A stretch of 20,000 nucleotides of DNA from Atractiella rhizophila (taxonomy: Eukaryota): positions 57,296 to 77,295 of the forward strand of contig MU271322.1 of NCBI GenBank assembly GCA_021432655.1, written 5' to 3'. The notes beneath the pieces were generated by a model. It was not told the DNA's origin and made no database searches. It saw only the letters and a program-made list of their open reading frames with translations. Each line of letters begins with the position of its first letter. The stretch's first letter is position 1. Both the position numbers and the translations under genes were made by a program. Of the stretch, positions 10,057 to 14,052 are shown in pieces.

Positions 10057-11046
10057 TTACTCCGGATCACCAGCAGCAATGTTGGCCTTGGGGTTGTGGA
10101 AGAGGGACCTAAAATCACGGCAATGTCAGCACTAGTACTTCCTAGAACAAGAAGAAGTGACGCACTGGTTGCCCCATGGGAATTCCTTGTTCCTGATGTT
10201 CATGTACGGATACACGATCCTCTCTGGCTCCTCACCTCCATTCAGCTCAACAAGATGGGCGTGATGAGCGCTAAATCCCATTTAATGGGACTTTCAGCTG
10301 AGGTGGAAACAAAACCTACTGCTCCTCCTTCTCAATTCGCTCAAAGTTAAGCCACGCGAGAGCGACGGAAGGGATGGCAACAAAGAAGGTGATCTTGCGC
10401 CAGAGGTCGGTCGTTTTCTCGGCATGGTGGGAGATAGCTTCCTCGTTCTGTTCCCAGGAGCAGGTGGTCAGTATCTAGTACAGACTTTATAGGTCCTTCA
10501 TTGCTATCCGTCTACTAATGTCTAAACCACTTGGTGAAAGTGCCTGATAATATACGAGAAAACGACGAATCATCCTTCCCAGGTCACAATATTCTCCCCG
10601 GCGAAGTTCCGTCTCAACACCAGCCTGCGAGAACTCTTTCGTGCTCCATAGACTGAGCATAAAGGTTGAACAGCAGCTCACGATGTAATGTAACGAGGCC
10701 ATGATACACTGATTGGGAGTAAATTGTCCCAGACAACACGAAAGAGCTCGGAGAGAGATGATATTTTCACTTTCTCAAGTCCTGCAAACCGTAGTTCATC
10801 ATGTTCGGACACAGCGAGCAACTAAAAGCTCATGCATCTACAGAAGGGTCTCAAATGGGGAAAGGGCAGCTTCACAACCATTTTCCATTCACAATGCATC
10901 ACATCCGACGACCGACAACTTTAACTCACCTTGAGGTAGTTTTGGGCCTTTTCCACGCTCTTGGCGGCAATTCCTCTTCTCTGAGAGACCTGCCTCAGCG
11001 TAACTGAGTTCCTCGCTGCAATCCTTAGTGCTCTCTGGGAAAACAT
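10057..11046 (-). CDS. COX13: Cytochrome c oxidase subunit VIa (mitochondrial precursor)
   Basis: Arg/Ser-rich presequence MFSQRALRIAARNS..., intron 10448-10929, then NEEAISHHAEKTTDLWRKITFFVAIP...YPYMNIRNKEFPWGNQSLFHNPKAN...*. HA..T..LW.KI and YMNIR.K.FPWG..SLFHNP are COX6A hallmarks. Confidence 0.95.
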
Positions 11047-11180: not shown

Positions 11181-13503
11181 ATGTCAGTCACGTCTTCAAC
11201 TCCAGGCTGGAAATTAGGTCACCCGCCATTTCACGACGAAATTGCTGGAGGAGACAATGCGTTACCACCCAACGGTTTAGAATTGGTGCAAGCTCACTGG
11301 TTCGTTAGGCATGGAGAGAGGACACGTGAGTATCTGTCCATTTAGAGTCTTGGGAAATGTCAGACCTTCTTTAAAGTCGACGAGGAAACACTGTCTTTTT
11401 AGAGGACCCGTGTACAAGCTTTCAGGCAAGTAGGTACGGAGCTAATTAGTTTTCAAGAATATACAACCCAAGGCGAAAGATACAGCCTGATGCCGACGTT
11501 CTAGAACGTTTGTGAGGGATGTTATTGATATCACATCTCGGCCAGCTGTATTTCGGCAGTTGCCTTGAATTCCTTTTACAACCTTCTTACATCTCCTATC
11601 ATTCCTACATACGAGCAAAGCTTTGTTTAAATTTGCGGCCTCAAATCTGTTGTAGAAAGATTTTTTAAAATTTTGCGATAAGTACCACAACATGTCAGGT
11701 CCACGTCTTCATGCCTTGTGCATACTTTCTGATGAGTTGTGGACCGTTACAGTTGTGGAAGAAAGATGAATACCGATTTCAGAGTTGAAGCCCAGGTGAA
11801 AATCGACTAACCTTCGACAGAAGGTGAAAGATTTTCCTGATTCTGGAACTTCTTAGTTAAACTTCGGACATCTCTTTGCTTTCTCGTCTTGAGTTGCTGG
11901 GAAAGATGTGAAAAAGGAAGCGCGCTGATGTTATTTTTTCGCATGAAAAGCCGTACGACCTCGACCTCTCCTCGCCTATCGAGCAGGCCTTCCTCAGCGA
12001 TACAACCTTTGTCATCTTGGCCGCAAATTCCATGCAGCAGTATTAGATTGGGACGAGAGTGGTGAGAATGGTTCAGTGGCTGTAGGTCCGTTCCTTGACT
12101 GCTCCTGGATCCTCCAGCGAAACATGATCCTAACAGGTCCGGACAAACATAGGTGCAAGGATACCAGCCAATCCAACGACTGGTGGGACGACAAGATGAA
12201 AGCGGAGGGAACAACTCCCGCATTGGTGACGAGGGAGAATGGTGTGCTATGCCTTGAACTCCCGCATTTCGGCGACGCTAACTGCGACTGGCATTGAAGC
12301 CATTGGGGCGAATTGACAGATGTCGGACGGATGAGCACTCGCCGCTTGGGAGAGGCCTTACGAAAGCTCTATGTCGATGAATTAGGCTTTCTGCCACCAG
12401 CAATTTCGGACGAGGGGATAGTAACCTTTCGCTCGACAGTGCGTGTTCGACACTCCTGTCTCATACCCAGTCTGACAGACTGAAATAGCCTATGCCTCGA
12501 ACGATAGAGTCTCTCCAACAGATTATCCGCGGCTTAGTCCCACATGAGCGTCAAGTGGAGGCGGGTTCGAGTTGGATTCCAAAAGTAGTCGTTCGGTATG
12601 TCTGAGACAATGTCCTCCTCATTCGAGAATATGGTGGCCGACGAATCGAGTTAGAGATCCGATGGAAGAAAGTTTATATCCGAATACCATCTGCGCAAAA
12701 CTAAGGAAAATGGAGAGCATGTATGCAAGCGCGGCTGCTCAGAAATGGGAACCTGAGCTAGCAAAGCTCGATGACAAGATCGCTAAATATACGGAAGGGT
12801 ATGTGCAGCCTCCTCTCCCTCAACACCTAATGACGTCGTCAATAGCCCGCTTCGAATTGACTCGTCACCTCGAGCATCAGGTGTGTTGGACACCATGGCT
12901 TGCTGCCGAGCACACGGCCTTCCCGTTCCTCCAGAATTCGAAGATCCCGTCATCCTTGAAACACTGGAGCGAGGGATTTCAGAAGAGTGGTTCGGTGGTT
13001 ACGACGCATCCCCAGAGTTCAAGAGGATTTCGATGGGGCGATTAGTTGGGGATCTACAGTCGACCCTTGAGCGAAAGATTGCAAACCGAGAGAAGAGGAC
13101 CGAGGATCCGTTGAAGGTTGCTGTTTACGCGCTGCATGATACAAGTATCTGCGGAATTCTTCACTCTCTTAACTGCTACGACAAAAAATGGCCAGCTTTC
13201 ACCTCTCACATAGGACTTGAACTATTTTCCCGCCCGCATTCATCAACGACTCAATCCTCATTCCTTTCTCATTTCATTCGCCCTTTCTCATCAACACCCG
13301 CGCAGGAATATTTTGTACGGGTACGATTCAACTCTAAACCGCTGAAGATACCAGCTTGTCAACCAAATGGGAAACATCTGGAGGGAAGTCAGGGATATGT
13401 CTGCACTTTTGAAGCCTTCAAAGAGGCCATCAAGGACGTCGTAATGACCGCGGAGGAGTGGGAGAAAGCGTGCTCCGGCGGCGTGGGAGGTCATCGTGGA
13501 TAA
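11181..13503 (+). CDS. Histidine acid phosphatase (branch 2 histidine phosphatase)
   Basis: Exon 1 (11181-11325, missed by the ORF track) encodes ...HWFVRHGERT, and Pro is completed across the 625-nt intron 11326-11950 to give RHGERTP. Downstream motifs: GECHWGELTDVGR, FRSTPMPRTIESLQ, ALHDTS (HD proton donor), WPAFTSHIGLELF. TAA at 13501-13503. Confidence 0.93.
11684..11873 (+). ncRNA. snR191: Box H/ACA snoRNA, snR191/U19 (SNORA74)-like, copy 1 (intron 1 of the phosphatase gene)
   Basis: Hairpin 1 has stems CCACAAC/GTTGTGG and GGTCCAC/GTGGACC with pocket GTCA + GTTAC. Hairpin 2 is closed by CCGA/TCGG with pocket AGAGT + TAGTTA. ACA at 11868-11870 plus 3 nt. The pockets are complementary to LSU rRNA helix 69 GUAACUAUGACUCU. 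Confidence 0.88.
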
Positions 13504-13865
13504 TGGTGGCATCTCAAAAACGACTCTCGTCACGGAGCCCCTTCTTGAGCAGTGCACTGAGTTGCCAGAAACGTCGACGAGCACGTTCCGGTTAGTCAAT
13601 CTAGGTTATGGGATGGACGTTTTGTTTGGACAACGAATGATTTGGTTACGTATTGCAAAGTGTCGTTTCACGTTATGTCAGCATCTCTCGCTCGTCAGGC
13701 ATAAACGGCGCTTTCTACCGCTTCACTACCCCCTCCTCCCTTTTGATACTCCATTTCGCTTCAATACATCGATTCGAAATGACAGATATGTCTCATGTGT
13801 TGGAGCACCGGATTGGTGTTGTCCTCCTTCCTATTGCCCCTGTGGAATTATTTTCTGGCGAGCAC

Positions 13866-14052
13866 ACCACAACATGTCAGGTCCACGTCTTCATGCCTTG
13901 TGCATACTTTCTGATGAGTTGTGGACCGTTACAGTTGTGGAAGATAATTTAAAACCGATTTCAGAGTTGAAGCCCAGGTGAAGTCGAATACCTCTTGAAA
14001 GGGGGAAAGAGCTTCTTGATTCTGGAACTTCTTAGTTAAACTTCGGACATCT
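13866..14052 (+). ncRNA. snR191: Box H/ACA snoRNA, snR191/U19 (SNORA74)-like, copy 2
   Basis: Near-identical to copy 1. Canonical H box AGATAA at 13942-13947 with a 14-nt 3' pocket arm, ACA at 14047-14049. Similarity to copy 1 stops exactly at ACA+3. Confidence 0.9.

Follow-up and report, generated by a model that had tools for sequence, protein, structure and literature searches.

U13, SNORD13 and snR45 are box C/D RNAs that guide the acetylation of 18S helix 45 by Kre33/NAT10 (PMC9226516, PMC5464676). The published model of snR45 (PMC5464676, Sharma et al. 2017) has the same layout of guides, box C and helix as the locus described here, and the layout of SNORD13 with its three-way junction was given in bioRxiv 10.1101/2022.05.12.491732. 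Whether RNA-guided helix-45 acetylation arose once or repeatedly was left open in PMC9226516, and the fungal part of data S1 of that study consists, in the portion available, of budding yeasts only. In the accessible text of a homology-based survey, which had an Atractiellales genome in its sample, snR45 was reported only from Saccharomycetaceae (PMC5824354). Intronic snoRNAs are common in Tremellomycetes (bioRxiv 10.1101/2024.10.08.617225). Members of the family from Diptera are described as being without the 5′ guide; its loss by trimming upstream of box C has been discussed, and intronic copies may be transcribed independently (PMC9226516). Our literature search, which covered few subscription papers, found no published U13 from Pucciniomycotina.

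The window analysed here is the whole 20,000-nt stretch between positions 57,296 and 77,295 (forward strand) of contig MU271322.1 of Atractiella rhizophila (GCA_021432655.1), a fungus of the Pucciniomycotina; the window belongs to a 51-Mb assembly, in which the genome searches were carried out. The region from 10852 to about 10608 on the minus strand (~245 nt) was interpreted, with a probability of roughly 0.7, as a functional variant of a U13/SNORD13/snR45-like box C/D snoRNA. In its action the RNA most likely resembles U13, and homology to U13 is probable. It was filed as U13/snR45-like because the defining canonical box D fails, which leaves the locus outside formal membership of the family. 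An initial annotation had proposed an orphan snoRNA or a new regulatory element at this place. An intron-hosted box C/D snoRNA around its ATGATGA motif and 15-bp stem is supported, but the word orphan is not, because two guides are complementary to the organism's own 18S on both flanks of the helix-45 CCG. Such a pair of guides is the signature of U13/SNORD13/snR45, which was not among the families named in the initial annotation.

Host intron and neighbourhood

The host gene is COX6A (cytochrome c oxidase subunit VIa), whose coding exon 1 lies at 10930–11046 on the minus strand, as indicated by the match of protein P0001 to PF02046 (98.6 bits) and by the splice joints. The 482-nt intron 1 claimed at the outset (10448–10929, minus strand), the proposed host of the RNA, was confirmed: its joint 10447/10930 was present in the assembled contigs of all four public runs. 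It starts with GUGAGU at 10929, ends with CAG at 10448 and contains a branch site UACUGAC (10467–10473, minus strand), which includes the only CUGA of the intron (10471–10468). A sequence search that skipped very common words returned intron 1 as a single match in the genome. A nested intron was considered and rejected, with one inner 5′-site-like GUGAGC only and no inner branch site; the contig of run X3 over 10421–10872, which bears on this reading, was ungapped.

The length of intron 1 had been put at about nine times the typical value. This holds for COX6A because its other introns measure 49 and 57 nt (49–50 and 57 nt in the run contigs), but not for the divergent neighbour, whose first intron spans 625 nt (11326–11950; joint seen in one of the four runs). 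The neighbour encodes a histidine phosphatase and lies head-to-head with COX6A, and splicing of the 625-nt intron completes its RHGERTP motif. This intron contains a copy of the H/ACA snoRNA snR191 (11683–11873, plus strand; Rfam 46.2 bits, cut-off 46). Long first introns here therefore do host snoRNAs, and each of the two head-to-head genes would thus have a snoRNA in its long first intron. A second snR191 copy was found downstream of the histidine-phosphatase gene (13865–14052, plus strand; 43.9 bits, cut-off 46); the two copies are nearly identical and 2.2 kb apart. Ahead of the intronic snR191 copy, the neighbour's intron has ~350 unassigned nt (11330–11680, plus strand) that could contain another small RNA.

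Guides, boxes and fold

Complementarity to rRNA was assessed with the organism's own 18S and 28S sequences. The 5′ guide (GS1, or 18S-A+B) occupies 10828–10852 on the minus strand, and its core CCUUCUGUAG (10847–10838) forms ten contiguous pairs, two of them G-U, with CUGCGGAAGG at the 18S 3′ end, 3′ of the target C and just past the helix-45 CCG. Flanking GA and CAU lengthen this duplex, which reaches −20.4 kcal/mol over 10852–10828. No other 22-nt window of the intron binds this half of the 18S target as well (−19.2 versus −14.2 kcal/mol for the next). The second guide (GS2, or 18S-C), GGCCUCGUUAC(A) at 10689–10700 on the minus strand, pairs with 18S GUAACAAGGUU, 5′ of the target C and just before CCG, with 10 of 11 positions paired (10700–10690), one mismatch and −10.9 kcal/mol; it is the second-best window of the intron for its 18S half (best −11.4 kcal/mol). 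The family's internal antisense to 18S GUAACAAGG is thus present in the intron as GGCCUCGUUAC, and the letters GCCUCGUUAC of this guide also occur in Capsicum SNORD13 (PMC9226516 data S1). In the folding model the second guide is partly paired, with unpaired probabilities of 0.25–0.94. The target CCG was intact at all three distinct rDNA places examined, and a Kre33/NAT10-type domain is encoded elsewhere in the genome (PF13718, 124.9 bits, a domain match only). A methylation-guide scan of the intron returned 12 duplexes of at least 10 nt compared with 12.8 ± 3.4 in 60 shuffles, that is, no excess; the scan missed the 5′ guide, which has two G-U pairs.

Box C follows the 5′ guide as a canonical AUGAUGA (RUGAUGA) at 10796–10802 on the minus strand, and this is the C-box-like motif that had been noticed near 10800. 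The candidate box D is a non-canonical UUGA at 10614–10617 (minus strand), in register with box C behind stem I, and an alternative CGGA lies six bases past it (10611–10608, minus strand). A canonical CUGA is absent from the 3′ end of the RNA, the sole one of the intron being that of the branch site. Among human D-box guides CUGA is present in 61 of 64, and the single guide with UUGA has a paralogue with CUGA (PMC5027482). A near copy of the 18S 3′ end, lying downstream of the candidate box D, was found post hoc at 10568–10587 on the minus strand (19 identities in 22 columns, 2 gaps); its score was reached by none of 5000 shuffles and by 2 of 478 window tiles, both of them this site, and no partner was found for it. 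Masking of the 5′ guide by this copy through a strong helix was rejected (−10.2 kcal/mol, with 483 of 500 shuffles equally good).

All motifs quoted in the initial annotation were recovered at their positions, and its 15-bp stem (10749–10735 with 10645–10631) was beyond chance. The stem comprises 13 Watson-Crick and two G-U pairs; stems of at least 15 bp with at least 13 Watson-Crick pairs occurred in 6 of 1000 shuffles (69 of 1000 with any number of G-U pairs); of 162 window tiles, the only two with such a stem were those that contain this one. Its pair probability was 0.54–1.0, and the enclosed UGGGA/UCCCA, also described before, paired with a probability of 0.91–0.99. For a 120-nt window with the stem, z was −3.98 in the sense orientation, compared with −1.56 in antisense. 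The description of the intron as structured was not borne out for the whole, which had a z of +1.22 with 90 of 100 shuffles folding equally well, and the sense-strand z stayed above −1.4 in 12 of 13 sliding windows. Folding no better than that of shuffled controls, which had been set as a test against the initial claim, thus characterizes the intron as a whole but does not apply to the central stem. Two other proposed structures were not confirmed. The GUG-CCUG/CAGG-CAC stem had a probability of 0.01 and a loop of 33 nt with no UUCG tetraloop, and the stems near the 5′ end (AUGCAU/AUGCAU, 0.6–0.7; AAUGG/CCAUU, 0.45) lie in windows with a z of about +0.2 to +0.4.

The trimmed region folds as a three-way junction of stems I, II and III, and the loop of stem III contains the second guide. 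In both the MFE and the centroid of the trimmed RNA, stem I is formed by CGGUUUGC (10784–10791) and the complementary GCAGGCUG (10621–10628), and stem II is a variable hairpin (10751–10783). Stem III is the 15-bp stem described above, supported by shuffles and pair probability, with its 5′ strand at 10735–10749 and its 3′ strand at 10631–10645; UGGGA/UCCCA forms an extra hairpin in the guide loop (10714–10731; all on the minus strand). A duplex of −11.6 kcal/mol joins the 14 nt that follow box C to the 14 nt preceding UUGA. The trimmed core had a folding z of −1.25, and in the full-intron fold the probability of stem I was 0.01–0.18 and that of stem II at most 0.05. A pseudoknot between the guide loop and the bases after box C would, by eye, comprise at most 4–6 weak pairs.

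One contig of run X3 covers 10421–10872 and carries four listed differences in the intron, at 10743, 10742, 10704 and 10631. Stem III, with its 30 nt, contains three of the four, and each of these breaks a sense-strand pair as read from the sequence; when the X3 sites were forced unpaired, stem III fell to ~0.6 and the MFE switched. The initial annotation had used G-U pairs to argue for the sense strand. The two G-U pairs of the stem were confirmed, but the argument is weakened because two U>C changes of X3 produce C-A mismatches in the sense strand and G-U pairs in the antisense strand. Three of the four differences are A>G on the plus strand, and an allele, a template switch or editing are indistinguishable as their source. 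The contig runs to 10872, 20 nt past guide 1 on its upstream side; its end there is not evidence for an RNA start because one run of contigs cannot show a start.

The clustering of pair-breaking X3 variants in stem III, together with the non-canonical box D, would fit a true U13/snR45 homologue in decay, in which mutation of box D and drift of stem III are tolerated because helix-45 acetylation can be dispensed with; when it is lost, yeast, fly, fish and human cells show little phenotype (PMC9226516). We consider decay unlikely. The altered pairs lie in the outer part of stem III, and the four X3 variants leave the guides, box C and the GS2-proximal 7 bp untouched. Moreover, the rRNA target is unaltered, the genome searches gave no better copy, and one published plant SNORD13, from Dioscorea, is also listed with AUGA in place of CUGA (PMC9226516 data S1).

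Upstream module, other copies and chance

A possible methylation-guide module of low confidence lies immediately upstream, at 10848–10909 on the minus strand, with a C-like GUGAUGC (10902–10896), a D-like UUGA (10854–10851) and a guide CCUUUCCCCA (10865–10856). This guide forms a 10-bp duplex with the organism's own 28S, including one G-U pair, 1 nt before UUGA. The +5 rule leads to G1493 of this 28S, which corresponds to human LSU 2388 (anchored by nine of nine expected letters at the Arabidopsis offsets), a methylated position assigned to the D′ guide of SNORD68 (PMC5027482). Furthermore, Rfam sn1185 aligns exactly over the module (22.6 bits, cut-off 60, E 0.042). The RNA could be drawn longer in either of two forms. 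One is a single intronic RNA of ~300 nt, in which the C-like box at 10902 pairs with the terminal UUGA and a 28S methylation guide is joined to the two-part 18S acetylation guide. The other is an RNA of ~385 nt, in which the branch-site CUGA is the true box D, UUGA serves as a D′ box and snoRNP assembly would compete with splicing.

There is no spacer between the upstream guide and guide 1, a C′-like AUGAUUC is present at 10574–10568, and CUA/UAG can pair beside the branch-site CUGA, all of which would suit such a composite. Nevertheless, we regard it as quite unlikely. A guide followed by YUGA as good as the one observed arose in 414 of 5000 shuffles (8%) of the 5′ 85 nt and in 1893 of 5000 shuffles of the intron; GUGAUGC and UUGA are both degenerate, so that the module is without canonical boxes; and the score of sn1185 is far below its cut-off. 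The counterpart of LSU 2388 is not among the methylated positions of Arabidopsis or yeast in the accessible part of PMC8351944 (Table 2), and folding of the 3′ part is not significant (z −1.4 to +2.0). If the composite were correct, the upstream C/D module would cap the RNA, so that a U13 bearing a 5′ guide survives intron release, and the 18S-like sequence downstream of box D may take part in RNA maturation. The product would be a snoRNA with two chemistries on both ribosomal subunits, using a non-canonical box D. Elsewhere in the genome the 28S guide pattern matched four other places (control 1), with no box C by eye, and the SNORD24, snR190 and SNORD12 models gave nothing significant. Two tandem short complements of the same 28S site, each followed by CUGA, were seen in L187 near 1501 (G000:C351:17603); they have no evident box C and are probably due to chance.

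For the shorter, U13/snR45-like RNA, the Rfam check suggested at the outset gave nothing above cut-off within the intron when the window and the intron were searched. The models snoU13 (RF01210) and snR45 (RF01266) did not match the locus even at E 10, and no place in the genome reached the cut-off of either model. U3 had already been discounted, and the two Fungi_U3 matches of the genome indeed lie on other contigs. The U3 copies at L181:1501–1764 and L182:1501–1762 scored 60 and 52 bits, below the Fungi_U3 cut-off, and have a common upstream motif CAGAACAGTGCGTCC.

A loose pattern consisting of guide 1, box C and guide 2 matched 5 of 20,000 shuffled introns. In the genome it matched 31 places compared with 32 for the reversed control, and therefore proves nothing alone. 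When 29 of the 31 genome places were scored for extra features, this locus ranked first with 41.6, ahead of 24 for the next, a margin that is flattering because the score was built after the locus had been seen and also permits UUGA. Among 134 control matches, at least ten guide-1 pairs were found in nine, a 15-bp stem in one and a stem I of −7 kcal/mol or lower in two. Outside the search pattern, letters shared with human U13 (CCUUYUGUAG..CAUGAGC), with 'N_fulvescens' (CAUGAUGA(AA)ACUACG) and with S. cerevisiae (GUUACAUU) were recognized by eye. Three further genome patterns, two of them requiring CUGA, yielded 11, 3 and 1 matches and no better candidate; 12 of 14 of these loci were folded and judged by eye, none with a U13 fold, and those not refolded were a duplicate and L145 and L150, which had already been scored among the loose-pattern matches.

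Beyond this genome, a search of a genome-contig collection with the single COX6A protein found nothing, the searches gave no Pucciniomycotina homologue of the RNA, and the COX6A alignment was too divergent for a scan of the locus. In 596 billion prokaryotic bases a stricter pattern matched 31 times, which was used as the chance rate, and the 89 matches of the metagenome scan are near this rate for the stricter pattern. Among the metagenome matches listed (80 of 89), there was no close homologue and, in the BLAST output available, no match to COX6A or the intron. The match L089 was rejected, as it lies inside a coding frame of a phage-like contig. On a eukaryote metagenome contig, L061:215–362 (plus strand) is a canonical-looking U13 with a 5′ guide, box C, three-way fold, second guide and CUGA. 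It is located between convergent-strand ORFs near an ELP1 gene, which we presume to resemble that of an early-diverging fungus. Despite its canonical look, L061 too is barely detected by the Rfam U13/snR45 models (snoU13 16.3 bits, E 4.3, not significant). Its extra-feature score of 28.4 is below two chance matches, and aligning it directly with the intron gave no information.

A chance origin, in which a long first intron holds a short inverted repeat or the remnant of a mobile element and the complementarity to rRNA is accidental, would be compatible with the whole-intron z of +1.22, the lack of an Rfam match, the loose pattern at genome chance level and X3 variants that fit an unconstrained inverted repeat. 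Such an origin is very improbable in view of the guides, box C and stems standing in family order and of the frequencies of the pattern (5/20,000) and the stem (6/1000) in shuffles. The transposon remnant named earlier as a possible refutation found no support either, as the intron is single copy in the search that skipped very common words and no target-site duplication was found in the flanks beside the repeat. Finally, the readings first suggested, a cis-acting structure that regulates splicing or expression of COX6A and an orphan of the H/ACA type, are extremely unlikely: the X3 contig holds intron sequence from 10872 into exon 2 and AGAAUA is present in the intron, but the hairpin probability is 0.01 with no hairpin-H-hairpin-ACA layout, the intron has no H/ACA match in Rfam, the riboswitch and cis-element families of Rfam are without a match in the window or the intron, and the U13 layout accounts for the features.

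Proposed mechanism and related RNAs

The intron, the two 18S complementarities, box C, the stem enclosing the second guide and the Kre33/NAT10-type domain come from the sequence, and the remaining steps of the U13-like reading are modelled on yeast and human. The RNA would be released from the intron or transcribed within it, and box C and the degenerate box D would fold together as a kink-turn to which the core box C/D proteins bind. Both guides would keep helix 45 of pre-18S open, and Kre33 would acetylate the second C of CCG, C1777 of the organism's own 18S and the putative counterpart of yeast C1773. The 5′ guide, lying upstream of box C, would have to be spared 5′ trimming, for which independent capped transcription and protection by the upstream module are candidates.

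If true, a two-guide single RNA in Pucciniomycotina would fill a gap and favour common descent, an argument that draws on letters shared with animal, plant and yeast members. The locus would also offer a test of how the 5′ guide of an intronic U13 is retained and of whether a box D in degenerate form suffices. The physiological stake is small because helix-45 acetylation is largely dispensable.

The locus resembles snR45 of S. cerevisiae and other budding yeasts in having the 5′ guide before box C and the same rRNA target, the second guide GUUACAUU in a loop beside the helix, and a long variable region; ACUACG after box C is shared with 'N_fulvescens' (PMC9226516 data S1). Unlike yeast snR45, it has a box D other than CUGA, a longer leader with 38 nt from the guide core to box C and an extra hairpin in the guide loop, shows no evident pseudoknot or C′ box, and lies in the sense strand of an intron. 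With vertebrate SNORD13 (U13) and plant snoR105/108/146 it has in common the 18S-A/B and 18S-C guides, a short helix outside the C/D motif and, in the fold of the trimmed RNA, stems I–III at a three-way junction, and several plant members have a mismatch at the same place of 18S-C (PMC9226516). It differs from vertebrate and plant SNORD13 by its degenerate box D and in being about twice as long. In the downstream 18S-like sequence there is some resemblance to stems IV/V of human pre-SNORD13, although its pairing with the leader is poor.

Among basidiomycetes, the Tremellomycete candidates snR45-U13_U3a and snR45-II address the same cytosine (bioRxiv 10.1101/2024.10.08.617225). The guides in Tremellomycetes were proposed to reside on two RNAs, one of them U3-like, whereas both are on one RNA here; the U3 copies of this genome have, by reading, ordinary leaders, unlike the Tremellomycete U3-like guide RNA. 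An intron-located acetylation guide is also known from Drosophila (Or-CD1/SNORD13, PMC9226516), and in contrast to the SNORD13 of Diptera, which is without the 5′ guide, the locus of A. rhizophila retains it.
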